This document shows, piece by piece, positions 472 to 63,720 of a stretch of DNA of 64,000 nt. Below the pieces are notes generated by a model that saw only the letters and a program-made list of their open reading frames with translations, did not search any database and was not told the DNA's origin. Each line of letters starts with the position of its first letter. Within the stretch, counting starts at the first letter, position 1. The translations under genes and the position numbers were made by a program. The DNA comes from Mustelus asterias (taxonomy: Eukaryota). The stretch covers positions 23,250,001 through 23,314,000 of the forward strand of contig NC_135809.1 of assembly GCF_964213995.1 (NCBI RefSeq). Direction: 5' to 3'.

Positions 472-1869
472 CAAAGGGGACTATTACACTGTAAAGGCAT
501 TTAAAAGTTCTACCCTTTATATATTTGGAAAAAAATATCTGGAGTGTATGTTTTAGTTGCTTGCTATTTCACTCTGTTGATATAAGCCGAGAGTTTCCAT
601 TACTGCATTAATGCTGCATGACTGAGTTCACAACCATTCATTATTACAGGAGAGCCATTTTGCAATTTGATTGACAGCTACAAATGATAGTAGACCCTTG
701 ACGTGGGAGGAATTCCAATGCATGTTATAAGGGATTGTGCACTTGAATGAAATGTTTGTAAAAAAGCTTTATTTAGTTGAAGGAATGCAAATGCAGTAAA
801 TGGGTTTTTATGTCATAATAATGAAGGAAAAACCACTGAATTACATCAAGAAATATTGATCTTTAACTAAGAACTGAGAGGTTTTTAAAAAAATGGACAC
901 ACAAGCCACAGATGGCCAAGTGTGTAAAGTCAGTCACTGGCTGAATTGCTGGAGGGTGACACTCAGACAGTGGAAGTCCACCCTGTTTCCAGACAACGTT
1001 GCTTCTAAAACATACAGAAACGAATGGCCATCTCCTGTGGAGACAATGGGACATAATGGGAGATGAGTGACTTCTCATCAGTAAATATCTCATGAGTAAT
1101 GTGATTTGTGGATTCCGTCTTCCAGGAATATACAAAGACTGGCTTTTGGGATAACGCATGTGTATGCATGTCAGAATATATGTGACATTAACAAAGCAAT
1201 GCCAACCAGCAACAGCACCCCTGCAAAAGCTTTTCGCTGACCTATCGCTGTCTGCACCTCTCATGGTTGAAGTAACCCGAGTCAGCAAAGACCATGGCTG
1301 AAATGAAAACGGGCAAACTTCTCTGTGAAACTGCACAACACCGGAATCTCCGAATCGACTATTCACCTACTGCAGGTGAATCGACTATTCACCTACTGAA
1401 ATCTTGAATCTTAATGGCTGCAAAGCTCAATCATCTACTCCTCATGAACCAAGGACTGTTTCGTATACTTTTTTTTACTCACTAACTTTGGAATCAATTC
1501 TCACCTCTAATCTGCATGAATGGAAATGCATCGTTTTCTTGCCTGTAGGAGTTAATAAGCTATCATTAACTCAAAGTCTGGTGCGATTGGCTCCTCTTAA
1601 AACATAAAAATTGGGAGTGGGGAGAGGGAGTGATTTTTTTTGTTAGATAAGTGTTGTGACCAGCAAGGAGGGCGTTGAATAAAACAAGGGAGCCAATTCA
1701 TTCCCCCCTCACCCGGAGCATAACAATTTGGTGATATCCCAGCTGGATAGTAACATATTGAGGGTGACTTCACCCCAGGAATGGTCATAGCACAGACATC
1801 AAGGAGATGGAGTCCATACAGCGAACAGCTCTCACCCAATATGTACATTTAAGAATAGAATTTATTTTT

Positions 1870-2295
1870 TGATTTGATTTATTATTGTCACATGTATTAA
1901 CATACAATGAAAAGTATTGTTTCTTGCGCACTATACAGACAAAGCATACCGTTCATAGAGAAGGAAACAAGAGAGTGCAGAATGTAGTGTTACAGTCATA
2001 GTTAGGGTGTAGAGAAAAATCAACTTAATGCAAGGTAAGTCCATTCAAAAGTCTTTGACAGCAACAGGGAAGAAACTGTTCTCGAGTCGGTTGGTACATG
2101 ATCTCAGACTTTTGTATCTTTTTCCCGATGGAAGGTGAGCCAAATCTGTAAGAAATTGAATTAAAGCATTATTAGAGAGTTTAAAAGGGTTAGAATGAAG
2201 TTTCAGAAGCATAGAACGAGAGTAAAAGATAGACTTAGAAGGTATGCTGGGCACAGCTTGCAAGAAGTTGCCTCGCTCCAGCGCCATCTTGGAAA
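1870..2295 (-). mobile_element. Internally deleted (non-autonomous) Rex1/Babar-type LINE
   Basis: Minus strand starts ccAAGATGGCG, then jumps to Rex1-type C-terminus LPSGKRYKSLRSCTNRLENSFFP and a tail ending tgtgacaataataaatcaaatc. Confidence 0.75.
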
Positions 2296-2364
2296 GATTT
2301 ATTTAGGTGCTTTCCCACTCCCTGGTTTTGCTGATGTTGTGTAGCGAGCGCTGGACTTTGCTGT

Positions 2365-2727
2365 TCCATTGACTCTGTCTACACTTCCCACTGCCTCGGG
2401 AAAGCAGCCGGCACAATCAAGGACTCCATGCGCCCCGGACATTCTCTCTTCCACCTTCTTCCTTCGGAAAAAGATGCAAAAGTCTGAGGTCACGTGCCAG
2501 CCGACTCAAGAGCAGCTTCTTCCCTGCTGCCATCAGAGTTTTGAATGGGCCTACCTTGCGTTAAGTTGATCTTTCTCTACACCCTAGCTGTGACTGTAAC
2601 ACTCCATTCTGCACTCTCTCCTTCTCCCTGTGTACTCTATGAACAGTATGTTTTTGTTTGTGCAGCTAGCAAGAAACAATACTTGCTGTATACCAATACA
2701 TGTGGCAATAATAAATCAAATCAAATC
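2365..2727 (+). mobile_element. Rex1/Babar LINE 3' fragment
   Basis: Same ORF C-terminus and 3' UTR as 1870-2135 in the opposite orientation; ends aataataaatcaaatcaaatc. Confidence 0.8.
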
Positions 2728-2957
2728 GTAGATACCTGGTTATAACCAGAGCACAAATGAAGGTCAGCTCCTCACGACCTCCTGACAGAGTGGTCTTATC
2801 TTGACACAGATTTTCAGACACACATTTTTCTCATTCAGAAAGATTTGCGATGCCAGGTAGATCCAGTCAGTTATGTTCGGATGTGCCTGATAAAGGGAGA
2901 ACCGGAGGATTGCGATTGGCTGCAGTCTTATAAAGTGAAAGCACCAATAAAAAAAAA

Positions 2958-3291
2958 CATAGAATCCCTACAGTGCAAAAGGAGGCCATTCAGCCCACTA
3001 AGTCTGCACTGACTGTCCGACAGAGCATCTTACCTGGGCCATATCCCTGTAACCCAACGTATTTATCCCACTAATTCCCCCTACACATCTTGGGACACTA
3101 AAGGGCAATTTAGCCTATCCAGCCAACCTAACCCGCACATCTTTGGACGGCATGAGGAAACCGGAGCACCCGGAGGAAACTCATGCGGACACAGGGAGAA
3201 CATGCAAACTCTGTCAGACAGTCACGCAGGGCCAGAATTGAACCCGGGTCCCTGTCGCTGTGAGGCAACAGCGCTACCCACTGTGCCACCC
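2958..3291 (-). mobile_element. HE1-type V-SINE with CR1 tail
   Basis: tRNA-like head with A/B boxes, central gggtttcctccgggtgctccggtttcctc domain, tail ending ctgtagggattctatg. Confidence 0.9.
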
Positions 3292-3667
3292 ATCCTATTT
3301 CTTGAAGATTTGGAGCCAGAGTGAAGCTTCAAAAATGGAGCTCAGTGCCTCTTATTAATATCTTACAAGACTGGAGATATTCTGTGAAAATAAACTTGAT
3401 GAAGATTTATGAAGATGATAAATGCAATCCACCACTACTGATCCATCATTGAAACCACTTTGCAGCGATCTTCAATCTTGTTCATTCATTGGAAGAATCC
3501 ATTTATCACATCCATTTATCAACATTTGGAGAGACCATGGTGGAAACTGAGGATGTGCAACATTTAGATGTTAAATATAGAATTATCACTCCTTGGTCGA
3601 ATAAACATTCAAACACATTTTGCACTGTTAGCTATGCTTATTTTTAATTCGAAGCCACTCCAAGTAT

Positions 3668-4255
3668 ATCTGTGCTGGCATGGTCACATTCACCAGAAGG
3701 ATGACGGCCATCTACCCAAAATCCTGAAGAGTGAATTGGCCACTGGGTCGCGACCTCCTGGGTGTCCATACATTTGCTGCAAGGAGACCACCGTGTTCCA
3801 AACCCACGACTGCTATCATCTAGAAGGATAAGGGCAGCAGATATCTGGGAACATCACCACCCAGCAAGTTCCCCTCCAAGTCACTCACCATGCTCACTGG
3901 GAAATATGTCACCGTTCCTTCACTATTTCTGGGTCACAATCCTGGAACTTCCTTCCTAACATCACTGCCGCATGGATTACAGCGGTTCAAGAAGGCAGCT
4001 CACCACCACCTTCTCGACGGCAATTAGGGATGGACAGTCAATGCTGGCCTAGCCCAGCGACGCCCTCATGCCATAAATGAGTGAATTTTTAAAAAGCAAA
4101 ATATATGAAGATGGCAGTTATAGACCCTGACAACTGGGAAACAATCAGTGACTGTCATGATCTCTGGAGGCTGACAGTTTGGAAAGGTAATTGGAAGAGG
4201 TCAGCTCCGCTGGCCAAGAGGAGAAAGCGAGTGAATTGTGCACCTGTAGTACATT
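3668..4255 (+). mobile_element. RTE-clade LINE C-terminal fragment, split by an insertion at 3790-4095
   Basis: LCWHGHIHQKDDGHLPKILKSELATGSRPPG (RTE-type LRWxGHVxRM...GELxxGxRxxGRP); resumes after 4095 as MKMAVIDPDNWETISDCHDLWRLTVWKG. Confidence 0.7.
3790..4095 (+). mobile_element. 3' end of a second CR1-group LINE family ('family B')
   Basis: Homologous to the 3' end of the RT-encoding copy at 20378-21260 (caagttcccctccaagtc...ggcaattagggatgg...gaatttttaaaa). Confidence 0.8.
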
Positions 4256-4268
4256 GGCAGAGACTGTC

Positions 4269-4441
4269 CTGATGTGGAGATGCCGGCGTTGGACTGGGGT
4301 AAACACAGTAAGAAGTTTAACAACACCAGGTTAAAGTCCAACAGGTTTATTTGGTAGCAAAAGCCACACATTGAAAGCTTGTGTGGCTTTTGCTACCAAA
4401 TAAACCTGTTGGACTTTAACCTGGTGTTGTTAAACTTCTTA
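4269..4441 (-). mobile_element. Penelope-derived fold-back mini-element (copy 1, ribozyme core mostly deleted)
   Basis: Near-perfect palindrome ~4308-4442 plus a unique ~37-nt extension; TSD CAGAGACTGTC at 4258-4268 and 4442-4452. Confidence 0.75.
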
Positions 4442-4944
4442 CAGAGACTGTCATGCCAGAGCAGGGATCCTGAGCCACATCACGCAATGCTTAATGCAAG
4501 TTGACCACCATGGTGTAACCCATTATCTTACCAGATGGAACGTGTCCATGAAGCGGTTTTATTTTAGGCAGGCATCATGATCGGCGCAGGCTTGGAGGGC
4601 CAGCGGGCCTGTTCCTGTGCTGTACTGTTCTTAATTCTTTGAAATGATTTCGAGTTTTTTTAGAAAGTTTTTGGTAAATGATTAAAATTTCTAATATTTC
4701 ATTCTTGGCTCCATGCAGAATTGCTATCTGTCGCATGTATTCCTGTTGTCACAATTTATGTTAATTTTTCTGTTACAAATTGCTATATCCACATTTATAA
4801 TGGAAAATGTCGAAGTAATCTGGCTCTAGAATTCCTGCTCAAGATACTATTTGAAATTGTTTCTCATTTGCTATTATTTTTCAAACTGAAATTCTTAATG
4901 GCCAAAATAAGGGACTAGCCAAAATAAATGCATCCATTGAGTTG

Positions 4945-47768: not shown

Positions 47769-47804
47769 GAAGAGGGTGAAGGAACATCCACAGAGGAAGA
47801 TTAA
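47769..47804 (+). CDS. HMGA2: HMGA2 exon 5 coding part (acidic tail EEGEGTSTEED*)
   Basis: Acceptor tttgtttttgtccgCAG; phase 0 joins exon 4; ends EED-stop like human EETEETSSQESAEED; let-7 8mer begins 21 nt after the stop. Confidence 0.9.
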   Translation, partial: EEGEGTSTEED

Positions 47805-47824
47805 GAAACCACCCTATTTTACTT

Positions 47825-50252
47825 CTACCTCATTCAGCAGTTGGGTCTTTTGAAGGGAGAAGACACTACCTTGACCACTTATTTTTTTTTTTATTCCCAG
47901 TTAACATTGGTCTGTCCACTTTATCCTGCGGAGAAACACATCCTCTGAAAGACTTTTGCTATCCACCTTTTTGTTTTTGTAATCCCTTCACAGTCCCAGG
48001 TTTAGTGATTAAAACACTGCTGTAAACACAGGGGACACAGATTAATGATGCAACATTTAATTACTGTTTTCTTTTTTTTAAATTCTTAACATACTTATAG
48101 TTTATTGAGCTGCTGAGTAAGGGTGAGTGGGTCAAAAAAAAAGTTATATTTTTCACTGAAATGCACAAAATAATGCAAGAAAACGTCATTTACCTAGCAC
48201 ATAATATGGGCATTTTGAGAGAACATGCTTTTCTGTTTTAAAATGGATGGGCTTTAATAGCACCGACACCCACCCCTTGACTTAGTGTACACCCTGTATA
48301 GAACACCAAAGATGAGGGATAGGCACTGCTCTTATAGGAACTTTTTAGTAGACTTTTTTAAAAAATTGATTTTCACTTACTCTAATTTCAGGAAGATCCT
48401 GGGGCTGATTTTTTTTTTTAACATATATTTAATTCTGCTGTTAACACCTAAAAAATTATATTCAGTAACTGAAGGGAAGGATGAAAAATCGACACACTTT
48501 TTTTTACAAGTCGGTAGGGTTAACAAACAAATCAAGAAATTCCACTTCAGTGTAAGTCACTGAAACTTGGAAAGGGAACTAATTATTCTTCTTCAGCCAG
48601 TCAACAAGAACCACATATATTATATATATCTATATATATTGTATAGGTGGCTTTACCTCTGATGCACTGCTATGTGGATGGATCCAGCAAACACATTTCT
48701 CGATTCAGCAAACACATGCCGTGACATTGATCTTCAAGTTATTCCTCCTCCATCCAGCCAATCCACAAGAATACTCAGTTAAACCAGCACTTTTAGTGAC
48801 AGTTGCAATATTACCCTATTATCTGTAACTACCTCTGATTGATTCAATTAGTTTGACAGTCTCTTGGGTACATGCTGCTATACACATACAATGCAGGAGA
48901 TTTTTTTTTCGGTTGAATGGATGGTTAAACGCTGATAGCTGATTTTTAAAAAATTTTAAATTCATTTTACGTTTTGCAGTCTAAATATGAAAAGAGGAAA
49001 CAAGAATACCTGAAAGCATTTTTTTTGTATTGCAATTTAATTGCCGAATCTTTACCAGGTTACCGATTCCCAGTTTGTGCGACTCATTTTCCGTTTGAAC
49101 TTTTAACTTGAATACAATTTTTTTTTACAGAATTACTCAATGATTTTTAATAGAACTTTTTTTTGCTTATGTTACAATTAATAACGTGAAAATATCTCTA
49201 TTGCTTTTATTTTTCATTTTTATGGGTAATGTTTTAAATATAACTCCCGTTTGTACCTCAAATGAATTCAAGGCAAGTGGACTAATCAATTGACCAAACC
49301 TACCTCCAGACATTTTAAAAAAAGAATGAACTTGTTACTATCAAACATCAGTTTTAAAATGTTATTAAAATTTTAGGACTGCAACTAATCCCTAATCAAA
49401 GTATTTTTGTAAAAAAAATAAGAAAAAATAACCTTGGATACAAAAGCATTTTAAATTACCTTCGATTCCGAAACCTTCTGAGGAAACTTGAAGCTTTGTA
49501 GGTGGGAAGCAACAAACTCAGTTCTTTTGTATAATTCAATCAAGAATATGTGTTTAAATTAGTAGATTGTAAGAAACGTACTTGATTCATATTTTCATGT
49601 ATTTTACACAAATGTGATTTTTTTTTCTCTTTTTTTCTCATTTTTGTAATGTCTCGACCAGATGTGTTTTTAAAATGCTTCTTAGAGTTTTATCTCGCTT
49701 TCTGCTTGTCGATATCGCTACTTTTGAACATTGAATAGGCCGGCGAGAAAGGGAGGGTGTAGTTTCTCAGGAGAATCTGTGACAGGAAGGCTTCAGTGTT
49801 GAGCCAAAGTACGACCAAAGCTGACCCCGTCGGGCTTCCATCTGAATTTGTAAAACCCTTGGCACGCAGTGTGGTGCATGCCCGGCCTGTACGTCGAAGG
49901 CTGAGGTATTATCGAGCTGCGTTTCCACCAAATTGTTCAATAATTGTATCCCCCCTCCCCCCCCCCCCCACCCCCACCCCCACCCCCACCAAACAAATGA
50001 CTGCCTTGTGTTTTCTGTAAGAAAAACACACGCACGCTTCTTGTGATTTGTTTGAGACGTCACTTCACCTATTTTGATTTAAGAGAACTCTGACCTTGGT
50101 TTTGGTCTAATGCATACTAAGGAAGCCTTTGGTCACTTGTTGGACATTTAGCTCTGGGAAGCCTCTCAAACGCTTGATGTTTATCATGTATTTCTCTCTA
50201 TGTTGTACAATCAATTACACACTACTACCTCTTGGGGCCTACTGTTACCTCA
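47825..50252 (+). promoter_or_regulatory. Seven let-7/miR-98 seed matches
   Basis: CTACCTCA 47825; TACCTC 48654; CTACCTC 48829; TACCTCA 49254; CTACCTC 49300; CTACCTC 50225; TACCTCA 50246. Confidence 0.88.
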
Positions 50253-50600
50253 ATTCCAAGCTGAAAATCTACTCAACTGTGTATGGCCAGTGGACCAGAG
50301 AGAGCATCATAAATTTTTTATACATAGTTTATTTTTTTGGGAGATAAATTTTATATGACTGTTCTCTCCTGACTGGTCGCCTCAAAATAAGACTGGACGT
50401 TTAACTTTTCGCTATTTTACAAAATAGTAGTCTTGGTTTGCAGGGGGAAGTCTGATAATGTTAGACTGCAAATCCTACTCTCCCTGTACCTTGAATGTCT
50501 AACTTTATTGCTTTGCTATTCACTTAGAGAAGCTGTCTGATTGTACTTGGAAATGCTTGCTTGCTGAAAAGGTTCGGATTATCACTGTCTGTTCAGCACA

Positions 50601-50606
50601 AATAAA
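50601..50606 (+). terminator. Polyadenylation signal AATAAA of HMGA2
   Basis: Canonical hexamer at the end of the TE-free UTR, followed by GU/U-rich sequence. Confidence 0.75.
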
Positions 50607-53454: not shown

Positions 53455-56400
53455 AAAATGCTGGCGGGGAGATTTGTTAGAGCCACTCGGGAGGGTTTAA
53501 ACTAGTTTGGCGGAGGGTGGGGGGGGGGGGGGGGGGGGATGGGACCCAAAGCAGTAGGGAGACAGAAGAGAAGGTTAAGGACAGCACAAAAGTTAAAGAG
53601 AGCACATTAAATAGTAACGGCAGTGTCAGTAATCCTAGTACCAAACAATCAGGCAAAAGCAAGACAGAGCGCAAGGGAAGTCCAAATTAAACTGCATTCA
53701 TTTCAATGCAAGAGGCCTGACGGGCAAGGCAGATGAACTCAGAGCATGGATGGGTACGTGGGACTGGGATATTATAGCAATTACTGAAATATGGCTAAGG
53801 GAAGGACAGGACTGGCAGCTCAATGTTCCAGGGTACTGATGCTATAGGAAAGATAGAACCGGAGGTAAAAGAGGAGGGGGAGTTGCACTTTTGATTAAGG
53901 AAAACACGGCAGTACTGAGGGGATATTTCCGAGGGTTGAACTGAGAAATAAGAAGGGGAAATCACTTTGATAGGGTTGTACTATAGGCCCCCAAATAGTC
54001 GGCAGGAAATTGAGGAACAAATATGTCAGGAGATTACAGATAACTCCAAGAAAAATAGTAGAAGATTTTAACTTTCTCAACATTAACTGGGCCAGCCATA
54101 GTATTAGAGGGTTGGATGGAGAGAAATTTGTTGAGTGTATTCAGGAGGAATTTCTCATTCAGTATGTGGATGGCCCGACCAAAGAGGGGGAAAAACTTGA
54201 CCTCCTCTTGGGAAATAAGGAAGGGCAGGTGACAGAAGTGTTAGTGAAGGATCACTTTGGGACCAGTGACCATAATTCCATTAGTTTTAAGATAGCTATG
54301 GAGAAAGATAGGTCTGGTGCAAAAGTTAAAATTCTAAATTGGGGCAAGGCCAATTTTGATGGTATCAGGCAGGAACTTTCAATAGTTAATTGGGGGAGTC
54401 TGTGGGAAGGAAAAGGGACGTCTGGTAAGTGGGAGGCTTTCAAAAGTGTGTTAACCAGGGTTCAGGGTAAGCACATTCCTCTTAGAGTGAAGGGCAAGGC
54501 TGGTAGAAGTTGGGAACCCTGGATGACTCGGGATATTGAGGCCCTGGTCAAGAAGAAGGAGGCACATGACATGTATAGGCAGCTGCGATCAAGTGAATCC
54601 CTTGAAGAGAATAGGGGGTGTAGGAATAGAGTTGAGAGAAATCAGGAGGGCAAAAAGGGAACACGAGATTGTTTTGGCAGATAAGGCAAAGGAGAATCCA
54701 ACGAGCTTCTACAAATACATAAACAAGTAACAAGGGAGAGAGTAGAGCCTCTTAAGGATCAACAAGGTCATCTATGTGTGGATCCACAAGAGATGGGTGA
54801 GATCCTAAGTGAATATTTCTCATCAGTATACACTGTTGAGAAAACCATGGATGTCAGGGAATTTGGGGAAATAAATAGTAATGTCTTGAGGAGTGTACAT
54901 ATAACAGAGAAGGAGGCGCTGGAAGTCTTAAAACGCATCAAGGAAGATAAATCCTCAGGACCGAATGAAGTGTATCCCAGGACACTGGGAGGCTAGGGAG
55001 GAAATTGCGGGTCCCCTAGCAGAGATATTTGAATCATTGATAGTCACAGGTGAGGTGCCTGAAGATTGGAAGGTGGCAAATGTGCCTTTGTTTAAGAAGG
55101 GCTGCAGGGAAAAGCCTGGGAACTACAGGCCACTGAGCCTCACATTTGTAGTGGATAAGTTGTTGGAAGGTATTTTGAGAGACAGGATCTCCAGGCATTT
55201 AGAGATGCAAGGACTGATTAGGGACAGTCAGCATAGCTTTGTGAGTGGAAAATCATGTCTCACAAATGGTTTTTTGAAGGGGTAACCAAGAAGGTAGATG
55301 AGGGCAGTGCAGTTGATGTTGTCTACAAGGACTTTAGCAAGGCCTTTGACAAGGTAGCACATTGTAGCTTGTTGCATAAGGTTAAATCTCATGGGATCCA
55401 GGGTGAGGTAGCCAAATGGATACAAAATTGGCTTGATGTCAGAAGACAGAGGGTGGTTGTAGAGGACTGTTTTTCAAACTGGAGGCCTGTGACCAGTGGT
55501 GTGCCTCAGGGATCGGTGCTGGGTCCATTGTTATTTGTCATTTGTATTAATGATTTAGATGAGAATTTAGTAGCATGGTTAGTAAGTTTGCAGATGACAC
55601 CAAGATTGGTGGCATAGTGGAGAGTGAAGAAGGTTATTTAGGATTGCAACGGGATCTTGATCAATTGGGCTAGTGGGCTGACGAATGGCTGATGGAGTTT
55701 AATTTAGATAAATGTGAGGTGATGCATTTTGGTCGATCGAACCAGGGCAGGACTTACTCAGTTAATGGTAGGGTGTTGGGGAGAGTTACAGAACAGAGAG
55801 ATCTAGGTGTACAGGTTCATAGATTCTTGAAAGTGGAGTCACAGGTGGACAGAGTGGTGAAGAAGGCATTCGGCATGCTTGGTTTCATTGGTCAAAACAT
55901 TGAATACAGGAGCCGGGACGTCTTGAAGTTGTACAAGACATTGGTAAGGCCACACTTGGAATAATGTGTACAGTTCTGGTCACCCTATTATAGAAAGGAT
56001 ATTATTAAACTAGAAAGAATGCCAAAAAGAATTACTAGGATGCTACTGGTACTTGATGGTTTGAGTTATAAGGAGAGATTGGATAGACTGGGACTTTTTT
56101 CTCTGGAGTGTAGGAAACTTAGGGGTGATCTTATAGCAGTCTATAAAATAATGAGGTGCATAGATCAGCTAGATAGTCAATATCTTTTCCCAAAGGTAGG
56201 GGAGTCTAAAACTAGAGGGCATAGGTTTAAGGTGAAAGGGGAGAGATACAAAAGGGTCCAGAGGGGCAATTCTTTCACAGAGGGTGGTGAGTATCTGGAA
56301 CAAGCTGCCAGAAATAGTAGTAGAGGCAGATACTATTTTGTCTTTTAAAAAGCGTTCAGTTTCATGGGTAAGATCGGTATAGAGGGATATGGGCCAAATG

Positions 56401-56498
56401 CAGACAATTGAGACTAGTGTAGGGGTTTTAAAAAAGGGGCAGCATGGACAAGTTGGGCCAAAGGGCCTGTTTCCATGCAGTAAACCCCTATGACTCTA
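53455..56498 (+). mobile_element. CR1/HER1 LINE: ORF1 end, near-complete disrupted ORF2 (APE + RT), and 3' UTR
   Basis: LAGRFVRATREGLN*; DFNFLNINW, LDLLL, GTSDHN (APE); [28 protein letters not shown] (RT); multiple stops and frameshifts. Confidence 0.95.
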
Positions 56499-56983
56499 AG
56501 TAACAGTTTATTGTGCTTTATCACACATTAAAAGATCAATGTCACATCTCACCACTTGTAAGAACTATCTCATGCTTGGGTCTTTTAATAGCAAGATGAG
56601 AGATTGGTATGCATGAGAGTTTGTGTTTCGTTTTAAAAATGTGTGTGAAAGAGAAAGCAAGGCTGTCATTTTCTGCTGCTTCTGACTTTGAGGATGTGAA
56701 TGGGTCTTACCAGTGGCTGCCGATTTAGGGATAAATTGCGCTTGCAATTAGCATCTAATCAACCACAGGATATGCCTATTTACAACAATTTAACCAGGGA
56801 GCTTTAAAGCAATAGGAGGTGACATACAGCTCATTAACAGCAGACATTATACTGTGCAATCAATGTTACAATGCTCCTATCCTCCTCAGGCCTCCTGTGA
56901 ACACCACCATGGAAGTTACCATTAACATTCCCCCCGAGCTTAATCAATGTACAACATGATCCAGATTGATTTCAAGTTGCTAC

Positions 56984-57277
56984 TGTGGTGAACCATCGTT
57001 GGTTCACCACTGGGGTTGTTATTTTGTTACTGTTGGGCTAGGGTGTTGTTGTTATGGGGGTTGTACTATGTTGTTGGGTTAGGGTGTTTACCTGTCCTAA
57101 GTGTTATCATGGCACACTCCAGTGGGGTTCCGCCTCCGGTGGCAGGGTATAAGACCCCCTGCTCCGGCAGGACCCCTTCAGTCTGAACGGGTGAATTTGT
57201 GTTCGTAGTTTCATTGTTAATGTATTAAAGCCTTCAGTTCTAAAGCCTTGTTTCCGGGTGCTCATTGAGGTGCATCA
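56984..57277 (+). repeat. 5' LTR
   Basis: TATAAG at 57148, Inr-like TCAGT at 57178, ATTAAA at 57224; direct repeat of 60021-60314. Confidence 0.95.
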
Positions 57278-57299
57278 ATTTAATACATTAACTGAGAAT

Positions 57300-58270
57300 A
57301 TGGAACAGATCCTAAAACCGGATCGTCTGACACTGGACCCACGTGCGGTCGGTGCAGCTAACACGTTCGAACATTGGTGGAAGTGCTTCGAGGACTACCT
57401 GGCAGCCTCGGTAGCTATCACTACAGACACTGATAGACTCCAGGTCCTCCACGCAAGGGTAAGCGACACGATTTACCTAGCCATTCGTGCAGCTTCCACT
57501 TACCAGGGTGCCGTCGAGCTCCTAAAGAATAGGTACATTACGCCACCCAACGAGATTCACGCTCGTTATCTCCTCGCTACACGACGTCGGCAGTCGGGCG
57601 AGACCATAGAAGACTACGCCAATGAACTCCTGCAGCTTGCCAAGGGTTGTGACTGTAAGGATGTCTCCGCCGAGCAGTACATGCAAGACCTCGCCCGAGA
57701 CGCGTTCGTAGCAGGGGTAGGGTCCTCGTATATCAGACTTAAATTATTAGAAAAGGGGAAACTCAACTTGACCCAGGCAATGGGGATGGCCGTGAGGTTG
57801 GAGGCGGCGTCGAAGAGCTTGGCGCTGTACCCCGAGGACCACGTGCAGTCAACGTGGTTGGAGCAAACTCTGCTCCCTCCTCGCCCCGCGAACCCGCGCT
57901 CCCAGATCGATTCGCGACGGCGGCAGCTTCAGGTGGCCAGCGATGCTATTTTTGCGGTGGGGCTAAGCATCCACGGCAACAGTGTCCGGCAAGAACGGCA
58001 ATCTGCAGCCAGTGCGGTAAAAAAGGCCACTACGGCAAAGTCTGCAGGTCCAAACCTAAAAACGGCAGTGCAGCTTGTAACCCTCCAGAACGGAGACAAT
58101 CTCCTTCGACGTCGCAGTACCCACGAGGTCCGACCACGTGCGATCCCAGGACGGCGCCATCGTGGCTGACAGAGGAGGAGGAAGACCACCAGGAGTCGCT
58201 GCGCTTGGAGCCCTCGGCCACATGCGATTCATGGGGGCGGCCATCATGGTCCACGACGACTAGGAGCGAC
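57300..58270 (+). pseudogene. gag: gag, frameshifted before the two zinc knuckles and truncated before protease
   Basis: MEQILKPDRLTLDP...RDAFVAG...IRLKLLE; CYFCGGAKHPRQQC and CSQCGKKGHYGKVC lie in the -1 frame. Confidence 0.85.
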
Positions 58271-58298
58271 CAGACAATGACAAAAAAAATAATAGGAT

Positions 58299-59747
58299 TC
58301 ACAAGTCCAGACGGTCTGGAGGACCACACCGACGCTGCGATCTTCTCAACACCGGTTGCGAAACCGGAGCAGGTGCTTGCGGTGGCTCTCTCAAAGCAAC
58401 ATCTGGCTGTCCCCTCAAAGACTCCCGGGCCGGCCGGCCCTGATGAGGCGATGGTGTAGGGGATCCTGGAACGTTTGGTGGTGGTGGTGGTGGTGGTGAT
58501 GATGGTGGCGCCGATCTCCGAGTCTCAGGCAAGCTGTACATGGGAGTAAAAGTGTTATGCACTGGTCCCGGTGCTGACCGCGCCACGTCTGGGGAAGTAA
58601 TGAGGAGTAGTGGATCTGTGACTGGGGGAATAGGAGCGACAGGAGTTGCTACGTCCCCTGCGGGCGCCAGGTCTCTAATGGAGACAGTGTCCTCTCGCCC
58701 GTCAGGATATGCCACATAGGCATACTGAGGGTTGGCGTGGAGGAGTTGGACCGGTTCGACCAAGGGGTCGGACTTGCGAGCCCTCACATGGCGCCGCAGA
58801 AGGACGGGTCCTGGGTACGTCAACCAGGCTGGCAATGAGGTCCCCGAGGACGACTTCCGAGGGAATGAGAACATCCTCTCGTGGGGAGTAGCATTGGTTG
58901 CCGTACACAGGAGGGAGCGGATAGAATGGAGCGCAGTAGGAAGGACCTCCTGCCACCGGGAGACTGGAAGGCCCTTGGATTTCAGTGCCAGTAGGACAGC
59001 CTTCCAGACTGTAGCATTCTCCCTTTCCACCTGTCCGTTACCCCTAGGGTTGTAGCTCGTGGTTCTACTAGAGGCAATCCCGAATGAGAGCAGGAATTGC
59101 CTCAAGTCGTTGCTCATGAACGACGAGCCCCTGTCGCTATGAATATAGCAGGGGTACCCGAACAGGGTAAAAAGCTCACTGAATGCCTTGATGACGGTGG
59201 CAGTCGACGTGCCCGCACAGGGGAAAACAAACGGAAACCGGGAAAATTCGTCTATTATGTTAAGAAAATAGACATTCCGATCCGTTGAGGGAAGGGGGCC
59301 CTTAAAATCTACACTCAGCCTCTCAAAAGGGCGAGTGGCCTTGACCAAATGTGCCCGGTCTGGTCGATAAAAGTGTGGTTTGCATTCTGCGCAAATCCGA
59401 CAACTTCTAGTAACTGACCTGACCTCCTCCACCGAGTAGGGTAGGTTGCGGGCTTTTATGAAGTGGTAGAGTCTGGTGACTCCAGGATGACACAGATCAT
59501 TGTGGAGAGCCTTCAAGCGGTCCTCCTGCATGATGGCGCATGTTCCGCGCGAGAGGGCATCCGAGGGCTCATTGAGCTTCCCTGGACGATACATAATATC
59601 GTAATTATAGGTGGAGAGCTCAATTCTCCACCGCAAGATCTTATCGTTCTTGATCTTGCCCCTCTGCGTGTTACTGAACATAAACGCCACGGATCGTTGA
59701 TCCGTGATCAGGGTGAACCGCTTCCCCGCCAAGTAATGGCGCCAGTG
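58299..59747 (-). pseudogene. pol: Inverted pol fragment: RNase H C-terminus plus complete integrase, stop-free
   Basis: HWRHYLAGKRFTLITDQ; HHCC motif LHNDLCH...CRIC; DDE motifs SVDFKG, HSDRGSSF, NGQVERENAT. Confidence 0.92.
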
Positions 59748-60020
59748 TCATCACCACCACCACCACCACCAAACGTTCCAGGATCCCCTACACCATCGCC
59801 TCATCAGGGCCGGCCGGCCCGGGAGTCTTTGAGGGGACAGCCAGATGTTGCTTTGAGAGAGCCACCGCAAGCACCTGCTCCGGTTTCGCAACCGGTGTTG
59901 AGAAGATCGCAGCGTCGGTGTGGTCCTCCAGACCGTCTGGACTTGTGAATCCTGTTATTTTTTTTGTCATTGTCTGTTTTCATCCACCCCGCCACCTTTG
60001 GTTCCTAAAGGAGGGGTGAA

Positions 60021-60314
60021 TGTGGTGAACCATCGTTGGTTCACCACTGGGGTTGTTATTGTGTTACTGTTGGGCTAGGGTGTTGTTGTTATGGGGGTTG
60101 TACTATGTTGTTGGGTTAGGGTGTTTACCTGTCCTAAGTGTTATCATGGCACACTCCAGTGGGGTCCCGCCTCCGGTGGCAGGGTATAAGACCCCCTGCT
60201 CCGGCAGGACCCCTTCAGTCTGAACGGGTGAATTTGTGTTAGTAGTTTCATTGTTAATGTATTAAAGCCTTCAGTTCTAAAGCCTTGTTTCCGGGTGCTC
60301 ATTGAGGTGCATCA
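60021..60314 (+). repeat. 3' LTR
   Basis: Follows the PPT; ends TGCATCA then TSD GCTAC. Confidence 0.95.
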
Positions 60315-61529
60315 GCTACCCAGTGTAATGCGTCATAAATTGATATTTTGTAATGGAACAATTGATCCTGGACTACATCTTCTGCCTCAGTAGGTGTCAG
60401 GTGTGGGGGAAATGTGGTAAAGTTACTCGAATACGCGCTTTGCTTCATTCCTGCTTCCCCCGCAGGTCAGTTTCTGTCGAAGGATGAGCGCTTGCTGAAG
60501 GAAAGACCAGGTCGGCAGTTTGCACTGCAGGAAAACTGGGGATGAGGCTAAGTCTCATCACCATCAGAAACGGGTTGATTGAACACTTGAACAAGTCTCA
60601 GTTGATCAAAGAGAGTCTTTGTAGATTTATGAAGGTTATATCTAACTAATCTAGTTGCAATTTATTTTGAGGGGGTCACTTTTGTTATGATCTCCGAAGA
60701 GATCAAGGGCTATGGGGAGAGAGCGGGTAAATGGAGTTGAAATCAACCATGATTGAATGGTGGAGTGGACTCGATGGGCCGAATGGCCTTACTTCCGCTC
60801 CTATGTCTTATGGTCTTATGGAGACCGATAACTTTCAAAGAGAGATTTGAACTTTCAGTTACTGGCTGAAAGAATGACATGGCAAAATTTCACTTTAACT
60901 GTAACAAATGACTAAAATTAGGATGAACCAAACATTTCTTATTATGGGCAACTCCCAAATGTCACGGCTCTGCCAGCTCCTCAAATGAGCAATGCACCAA
61001 GCACCATTCCCTCGCCTTCTCCCCATAACCCTGCACATTCTTCCTTTTCAGATAATCCAATTTCTTCTTGAACCTGCCTGCACCACATTCTCAGGCGGCA
61101 CATTCCTGATCTTAACCACTCACTACATTGAAAAGGTTTCTCCTCATGTCTCCACTGCTTCTGCCAATTACCTGCAATCTGACCTCTCAATATCAGTCAT
61201 AGAAGTTTACAGCATGAAAACAGGCCCTTCGACTCAACTTGTCTATGCCGCCCAGTGGCAACAGTTTTCCCCAATCTGTTCATGACTTCAAACGCCTCTT
61301 TTTCAAATCTCAATGATTAATGTGAAACACATTAACACTACATTCAGACTAAAGTGTTGTCCAGCTGTCTTTGACCCCAACTTTCTTGTATGTTAGAAGT
61401 AAATTGACAGTTTACAATACAACTGTTTACAACCCAGTACCTTCAACACCTTTCTAGGCCTTTGGGAGACTTGGAGTCTATTCATTATACACTCGAGAGA
61501 CTGCTGCCATTGTCTCCAAGTGTAAATAT

Positions 61530-63720
61530 AGGACAGGAAAATAGAAAAACTTGGTGGGAGTAGGCTCTGTTAATGAAGGATGAGTTGGGTACAGTAGTGA
61601 GTAATGATCTTGGTTGAGAAGATCAGAATATAGAATCAGTTTGGGTGAAGATAAGAAATGGCAATGGAATGAAGTTAATAGAGAGAGTGCCCCTACCAGT
61701 AACTACACTGTAGGATGGAGTATAAATCAAGACATAATGGGGGCTTGCAAGAAAGGTACTACAATAATCATGGGAAATTTTAATCTTCATATAGATTAGA
61801 CAAATCAAATTGGTAAAGGTAACCTGGGAGTTCATAGAGTCTAGGCTCTTAGAACAATACATAATGGAACCAACCTGGGAACAGGCAATTTTAGATCTGG
61901 CAATGTGTAATGAAACAAAATTTATTAGAGATAGTAAAGGATCCTCAAGGTAAAAATGATCATAATGTGATAGAACTTTGCATTCAATTTGATGGTGAGA
62001 AATCTGGGACTGAATCTAGTGTCAGAAACTTAAATAAAGGTAATTACAAGAGTATGAAGACTAAAGTGGAATGGGAAATGGGTTAAAAAGTAAGATGGTA
62101 GATGAGTGGTGGCAGGCATTAAAAAATATATTTCATAAATTTCAATAAAGATATAATGCATTAAGAAAGAAAGACTATCTGAGAAGGATGCACCATCCGT
62201 GGCTAACTAAAGAAGTTAAGGATGGTATCAAATTGAAAGGAAAGACGTACAATACTGCAAAGATTAGTGGTAAGCCAGAGACTGGAAAAATTTAGAAACC
62301 AGCAAAGGATGACTAAAATAAGAAAGGAGAAATTGAAGTATGAGAGATCTAGCACAGAATATAAAACAGACAGTAAAAGCTTCCACAGTAAAGAAAATAA
62401 TAGCAAAAGTGAGTGTTGGTCTCTTAAGGCAAGGCTGAGAAAGGTGGGGCCAAATGGGAAGGAGGAATATAAAACAATCATGATCACTGGGGAAAAACAT
62501 GCTGGTGATTCTAGAATGACTAATGGCCAGCATCCTAGGATCTCCAAGGAAATAGCAGCAGAGATAGTGGCTGCATTGGTTAGATCTTCAAAATTTCCTC
62601 GATTCTGGAAAAGTCCCAGCGGATTGAAAAAGCACAAATGTAACACCACTGATCCAGAAAGGAGGGAGACAGAAAGCGGGAAACAATTTGACAGTTAGTC
62701 TAATAATGCCATCGGGAAAATGCTAGAATTCATTATTAAGGAGTAATAGCAGGACATTTAGGAAATTGTAATGCAGAAACAACATGGTTTTGTGAAAGGA
62801 TAATTGTATTTGATAGATTTATTAGTGTCCTTTAAGGATGTAGCAAGCAGGGTGGATAAAGGGGAACCAGTAGATGTAGTGTATGTAGAATTGAAAAAGG
62901 TATACAATAAAGTGCCATATCAAAGGTTACAGAACAAGAGCACCTTGTATGGAGGGTGATATATTTATGTGGAAGGGGGATTGGCGAATTAACAGGAAAC
63001 AGTGTCAGGATAATTTCCAGGTTGACAAACTGTAACTTTTGGCTTGCTGCAAGGATCGGTGCTGGTGCCTCAACTATTTATGATCTATATTAATGACTTG
63101 GATGAAGAGACTGACTGTATTGTAGCCAAATTTGCATTGGCAGGTAGAAAAGTAAGTCGTGAGGAGCATACAAAGAATCTGCAAAGGAATATATACATAT
63201 AAATATAGGTAGTACAGAGAAGGTTCAGGAGGTTGATTCCTGGGAATGGAGGGATTGTCTTATGAGAAAAGGGTGAGCAGGTTGCACATTGGAGTTTAGC
63301 AGATGCGAAGTAATTTTTACTGAAATGTAGAAGGTTCTGAGGGGGCTTGACAGGATAGTGGATGTTCCCTCTTGTAGTGAAATCTAAAACTAGAAGGCGC
63401 CATTTAAAAATAATGGCTTTCCCATTTCAGACAGCGCTGAGGAGGAATTTTGTCTCTTTCGAATTCTATTCCCTAGAGAGCAGTGGGGGCTGGGTCAGTG
63501 AATATATTCAAAGCCGAGTCGAACAGATTTTTATCGACAAGAGAGGGGGCAGACAGGAAAGTGGGGTTGAGGCCACAATTTAAATCATTGATTGGTGGAG
63601 AATGCTTGATGGACAGAGTGGCCTACTACTCCTCTTATTATGATCTTAGGAGCACCCATGATTTAGTTGAATGGCAAACAGGCTCCAGGGGGTGAATGGC
63701 TACTCTTCTTCCCACATCTT
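61530..63720 (+). mobile_element. Old, heavily degenerate CR1 ORF2 plus 3' UTR
   Basis: IIMGNFNLHID; caaggatcggtgctggtgcct (QGSVL); attaatgacttggat; CR1 tail; short CR1 tails also at ~60700-60820 (+) and ~60980-61255 (-). Confidence 0.85.

Follow-up and report, generated by a model that had tools for sequence, protein, structure and literature searches.

A 3,331-bp LTR element at 56984-60314 of the window (the whole 64,000-nucleotide stretch of Mustelus asterias DNA analysed here) is a Ty3/gypsy LTR retrotransposon copy whose interior carries a large deletion together with an inverted duplication, as evidenced by its LTRs, target-site duplication, RNase H to integrase order and polypurine tract (Table 1). 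The structure is confirmed in the assembly and is probably real DNA. As a defective LTR element with deletion and inverted duplication, it belongs to a known type of accident that happens repeatedly, given that an independent case, L109, was found in the same family and that inversions make up 1-2% of HIV-1 and HTLV-1c proviruses. As for its origin, we give about an even chance to a scenario in which reverse transcriptase would have switched templates twice among family RNAs, with a result that is probably a neutral accident.

When aligned to a single ordinary family member of 4,723 bp, the element follows positions 1-1291 in the forward direction, then 4385-2907 in reverse and 4157-4723 forward again, with 1,615 bp missing and 229 bp present twice in opposite orientation; from the family layout it follows that the lost part would be PR-RT-RNase H. 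The two LTRs (294 bp each, TG...CA ends) differ at 3 positions in 294. The duplicated stretch, family positions 4157-4385 and not within the LTR, forms inverted arms of 229 nt (58271-58499 and 59748-59976) that are 99% complementary with 1,248 nt between them. Alignment of the arms revealed one substitution and one 3-nt unit as the only differences, the 3-nt unit extending arm 1 to approximately 58502. This agrees with the preliminary description, made from the sequence alone, in which gag was cut near 58270, pol ran in reverse over 58271-59747, the native 3' end resumed at 59748, inverted repeats of about 230 bp differed by one substitution and one ACC unit, and the LTRs, polypurine tract and target-site duplication were intact; a frameshift in gag near 57.9 kb is additional. 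The ACC (proline) repeat of the integrase tail (58479-58502 and 59748-59771) ranges from 4 to 8 units across copies and is missing from the oldest lineages sampled.

The inverted piece is 99.6% like young copies and contains an open frame at 58299-59747. Pfam analysis of the 482-aa minus-strand frame matched RT_RNaseH at residues 1-47 (the last 47 aa of the domain), Integrase_H2C2 at 74-124 and rve at 138-234, with no chromodomain match in this integrase frame and no match in either gag piece. The Atlas similarity neighbours of the element are gypsy-type pol clusters, and the two CCHC knuckles of gag are a feature that we take to be linked to the Mag clade. A TATA-like word is present in the element. 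The rearranged copy is non-coding.

Table 1 Features of the rearranged element and of the upstream gene end (window coordinates).
Feature	Position	Strand	Remarks
Last exon and 2.8-kb 3' UTR, HMGA2-like gene	47769-50606	+	AATAAA at 50601
Target-site duplication, left copy GCTAC	56979-56983	+	5 bp
5' LTR, 294 bp	56984-57277	+	starts with 11-bp hairpin
LTR word ending ATTAAA, predicted self-primer	57216-57229	+	complementary to primer site
Primer-binding site	57279-57292	+	14-nt perfect complement of 57216-57229; without tRNA-type TGG
gag, two CCHC knuckles	57300-58273	+	frameshift near 57.9 kb; ends at left joint
Left joint	58271-58273	.	CAG, 3-bp microhomology; one genome copy
Inverted-repeat arm 1	58271-58502	-	reversed integrase tail and 3' untranslated stretch
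Inverted piece: RNase H end, integrase, 3' untranslated stretch	58271-59749	-	family 2907-4385
Three synonymous older-sub-lineage variants	59724-59732	-	within 26 bp of right joint
Right joint	59738-59749	.	9/12 bases common; one genome copy
Inverted-repeat arm 2	59748-59976	+	native integrase tail and 3' untranslated stretch
Polypurine tract	60007-60020	+	precedes 3' LTR
3' LTR	60021-60314	+	59748-60314 (567 bp) identical to six sampled loci
Target-site duplication, right copy GCTAC	60315-60319	+	matches left copy

The family to which the element belongs is large, with 1,804 matches of a 28-nt gag word in the 3.68-Gb genome (877 forward and 927 reverse) and 1,591 matches of an RNase H word. 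Fetched copies are approximately 88% to 99.8% identical to a ruler copy, and the rearranged element falls in the youngest group, its parts being 98.5%, 99.6% and 99.5% identical to the same ruler. A census was taken of the first 100 of the 1,804 gag matches (93 on contig C1 and 7 on C2), which sees only copies retaining the gag word. Eighty-three aligned end to end in one piece and 17 otherwise (deletions, insertions, duplications, truncations or split alignments); one of the 100, L109 (G000:C1:75397086-75402586), carries an internal inversion with 241-bp arms at 98.8%. This inverted-duplication element (L109:143-5076) reads 1-2774 forward, 3068-2534 backward and 3073-4723 forward, with arms about 290 bp apart and microhomologies of at least 7 bases at both joints, which differ from those of the window element. 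It is a young copy with a CATCC target duplication and zero LTR differences, and it is an independent inverted-duplication case; since its LTRs are identical, such inversions can exist at or soon after insertion. The rate of 1 in 100 scales to about 18 hairpin copies in the genome (95% range 0.5-98). The arm lengths of L109 and the window element (229 bp) are similar, in two cases only.

Among the best 20 matches to the element, L004, L015, L017 and L018 are likewise rearranged. L018 (G000:C6, L018:1234-3059) is a fold-back that keeps only the half running from RNase H through the 3' LTR; where an LTR end is missing, a 32-bp inverted piece derived from the purine tract and the beginning of the LTR takes its place. 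CTCTC occurs on both of its flanks, which is weak as a target duplication because it lies within a CT repeat, and the 11-bp terminal hairpin of the LTR itself seems to supply the CA end. In L004 (G000:C160, L004:3971-4263), LTR positions 1-246 are joined directly to the reverse of 309-249, turning at the primer word, and this junction looks like a fossil self-primed first strand or a switch on the 14-bp inverted repeat. L015 (G000:C9:69607000-69616999) is a tandem array of the element in which three or more units, each about 4,019 bp long (family 694-4723), follow one another head to tail. Taken with L109 and L018, the window copy makes it possible to estimate roughly how often inversions occur in a young LTR family (about 1 in 100) and supplies the sequences at their joints.

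No tRNA primer site is present in the element, and the sequence that follows the 5' LTR is the exact complement of the LTR word ending ATTAAA. A complement of 13-15 nt was found at 138 of 144 LTR-leader joints (loci L001-L155), compared to 8 nt or less with shuffled leaders, and the middle of the word co-varies on both sides across more than 10 variants, with AATAAA in older lineages. According to one study, self-priming is recognised by at least 10 nt located 0-5 bp after the 5' LTR and complementary to an LTR word (PMC6317226), and this is the arrangement found in the family. Self-priming via the LTR word is thus likely from the sequence pattern, and primer pairing could hide the poly(A) signal of the 5' LTR. 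A literature search, thin on subscription journals and supplements, returned no report of self-priming through a poly(A) word.

Both inner joints lie on short sequence likenesses. At the left joint, CAG can be read both as the continuation of gag and as part of the reversed 3' untranslated stretch, while at the right joint 9 of 12 bases (GGCGCCA...TC) are common to the reversed RNase H and the integrase tail; two template switches are therefore likely, given the 3-bp and imperfect 12-bp microhomologies, although microhomology joints can arise by reverse transcription or by repair, as stated in PMC13427564. The preliminary description had proposed counting other genomic copies with the same junctions, and with up to one mismatch allowed each joint gave a single match in the genome. 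The mobilisation that it had also envisaged is not borne out, as the whole-genome joint search found no daughter copies in the assembly; neither a second haplotype nor an empty site was found there, the flank being matched once. The three synonymous variants close to the right joint occur in none of 26 young copies and are carried by older lineages, suggesting that at least one further template was probably read. The break of L018 lies within 1 bp of the right joint, but L018 was chosen via this element, and an RNase H hot spot is not claimed. A genome-wide pattern for foreign sequence before the RNase H site, built to include both known cases and expected to detect about one-third of random joints, gave five matches, namely the two known cases and three small indels.

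On the basis of these joints, the favoured template-switching route may be outlined as follows. One switch would leave a strand that ends in RNase H; this strand would re-pair with the integrase tail through the GGCGCCA..TC similarity and copy onward to the LTR, leaving 229 bp duplicated in inverted orientation; another switch, at CAG, would join the inverted product to LTR-gag, and integrase would insert the rearranged product with normal ends. Frequent switching between co-packaged RNAs is also what would be expected to yield the gag haplotype-block mosaics seen in the young copies. Across 45 of these, 21 shared variable sites were counted in LTR-gag (57278-58273 region) versus 1 in 1.24 kb of RNase H-integrase, a pattern suggesting that recombination has been frequent and that one type of pol has recently swept through the family; none of the 45 matches the window copy at all 21 sites. 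Two candidate parents were rejected. The RNase H variant gave 14 exact matches, the window locus and 13 older copies, and a gag variant gave 130 matches, of which all 20 fetched come from a lineage with a similarity of about 94%. In the lineages with which single variants are shared, similarity amounts only to about 94% or 88-95%.

The distribution of substitutions counts against template switching and gives some weight to later repair, a possible though tentative explanation in which a resident copy of greater age would have broken once inserted, and sequence from younger family members would have patched its middle and 3' end, leaving a neutral dead copy. The patch would have come from genomic copies or folded-back cDNA, its left side joined by microhomology and its right side by homology. 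Indeed, 8 private substitutions were found in the 5' 1,291 bp (5' LTR and gag) versus 2-3 in the remaining 2,046 bp, the latter all in the inverted piece and 0 in the last 567 bp; in 20 unselected plain young copies the means for the same three parts are 1.75, 2.0 and 0.65, with a 5' maximum of 4. Ancestral variants at 58146 and 58167 are retained in the 5' part. The three LTR differences (57024, 57129 and 57204) all lie in the 5' LTR and are absent from the sampled young copies, no other copy of the assembly has any two of them together, and outside this locus the 5' part is matched at 98.8% at most. Template switching would thus call for an older parent RNA for the 5' part that has no donor in the assembly, whereas repair would explain these variants without any lost parent. 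A post-integration origin is favoured for HTLV-1 in PMC13427564.

Repair is weakened by the test of uneven load, which is post hoc and gives P values from 0.010 to 0.13 by counting rule, the upper value, not significant, applying if the three older-lineage variants are added to the count of the inverted piece. Furthermore, the nearest sampled matches to the 5' part (L009 and L059) match the 3' part too, and L109 is the same kind of product with identical LTRs. Differences between LTRs and between arms can also mislead as clocks, as the window copy illustrates. LTR mismatches in the 20 young copies number 0 in 11, 1 in 6, 2 in 2 and 3 in 1, and it has been proposed that a single provirus can derive its LTRs from two different RNAs (PMC9278108). 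The divergence of the arms had been read as placing the rearrangement at about the time of insertion; this dating does not hold, because both arm differences are family polymorphisms, the arm-1 base (58293) being found in one other copy and the longer ACC repeat in several.

It is unlikely that the inner joints arose artificially in the assembly or the library, for example from a chimeric or fold-back read in an 1,800-copy repeat. Amplification chimeras give inversions at microhomologies too, each joint is unique in the genome, and among the matches listed from four contig sets no contig spans either joint, the right one lying in skipped repeat; but the arms differ from each other, unlike those of a fold-back read, the target duplication matches, the locus has variants of its own and lies within a 140-Mb contig with single-copy flank, and L109 independently displays the same kind of structure. 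Contigs of run X1, which may be the assembled sample, enter the LTRs from both flanks with no difference, over flank-LTR overlaps of only 24 and 25 bases, below the 31-base bar.

Upstream of the element, the exon at 47769-47804 encodes EEGEGTSTEED* and its 3' UTR contains four let-7 seed matches (47825, 48829, 49300 and 50225), a gene end that presumably belongs to HMGA2. The preliminary description had placed an HMGA2 poly(A) site about 6.4 kb before the element in the same sense; the gene end and its AATAAA at 50601, 6.38 kb before the LTR, were found. Ten further AATAAA/ATTAAA hexamers lie between this signal and the LTR, although hexamers alone prove no termination. Decayed LINE pieces, which we take to be CR1-type, flank the element at 53974-56495 and 61600-63430 (endonuclease- and RT-like frames).

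The preliminary description had further regarded the element as a potential hairpin and antisense silencer analogous to Mu killer. Its structural part stands as a prediction, since in the predicted fold of a transcript through the element all 229 of 229 arm-1 bases are paired and 1.25 kb of antisense integrase is carried; a role like that of Mu killer is poorly supported. For such a role the locus would have to be transcribed, from the LTR or by read-through, and the stem and antisense integrase would give rise to siRNA or piRNA measurably repressing the family in trans, which we consider improbable. LTR ends, a TATA-like word and a purine tract are present, and the arms are 99-100% matched to the youngest copies. 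Inverted LTR pieces yield 21-23-nt RNAs in mouse oocytes (PMC6944382) and one Mu killer copy silenced about three-quarters of high-copy plants in two generations (PMC3440606). Against this, the window copy has more LTR differences than 19 of 20 young copies, suggesting that insertion of the family continued, provided that the rearrangement is not much younger than the 5' LTR. The arms consist of integrase tail and 3' untranslated stretch and miss the promoter, the element is one of the estimated 18 hairpin copies, and full-length Dicer makes little siRNA in mouse somatic cells (PMC6944382). Antisense read-through from host genes is likely to be common already, because copies lie in both orientations genome-wide (877 and 927). 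Hairpin or antisense RNA from this locus would add little beyond approximately 1,800 scattered copies, perhaps tens of other hairpin copies among them, and the copy is probably neutral. As matters stand, the window element is a dead copy of the ordinary sort, though a clean example.

A broader version of the idea, to which we assign a similarly low probability, is that error-prone copying turns about 1 in 100 copies into hairpin loci and that this scattered pool, the window element among its members, supplies the dsRNA starting small-RNA silencing of the family in the vertebrate germ line; if true, the retrotransposon would be breeding its own Mu killers. A literature search thin on subscription journals and supplements found no account of an LTR retrotransposon with an internal inversion that works as a silencer in an animal. 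Were hairpin copies to make small RNAs, they would provide a way for an LTR family in animals to become silenced initially without any insertion in a piRNA cluster, and this could be put to the test through the unique joints.

Several known systems resemble the window element in part. Inversions were recorded in 2 sequenced HIV-1 proviruses, 1.3% for each class (PMC9278108), and in 1.9% of HTLV-1c proviruses (PMC13427564). These defective proviruses share with the window element intact ends, a large internal deletion, an inverted piece and short microhomologies, as well as a frequency of about 1-2% of copies and an origin debated between reverse transcriptase switching and later repair. In contrast to them, the window element is a germ-line Ty3/gypsy copy, and its inverted piece overlaps the retained 3' end, giving the 229-bp inverted repeat. 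In its priming the family resembles Tf1/Sushi-type elements, which have no tRNA primer site and 13-15 nt after the 5' LTR that pair with an LTR word (PMC6317226 and PMC3601003). It differs from them in that the word ends in a poly(A) hexamer and in having two CCHC knuckles and no chromodomain match, the clade assignment being provisional; the first bases of the LTR, TGTGGTG, agree with TGTGGYG, the motif of CsRN1, rather than with those of Mag A or Mag C (Table 3 of PMC3601003). Like LTRIS_Mm in Gm17821 of mouse oocytes, the window element is an inverted repeat of transposon origin which, if transcribed in a vertebrate germ line, could be cut by Dicer, but the mouse repeat consists of two insertions in a transcribed locus with sequenced small RNAs (PMC6944382), whereas the one described here arose within a single element. 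Mu killer of maize is, as here, internally deleted and partially duplicated in inverted orientation, with an adjoining host gene for read-through (PMC3440606). Its duplication spans about 1.3 kb from the 5' end of the transposase together with both terminal repeats, and its silencing in trans is shown (PMC3440606), whereas the window element has 229-bp arms of integrase tail and 3' untranslated stretch and belongs to a retrotransposon of about 1,800 copies.
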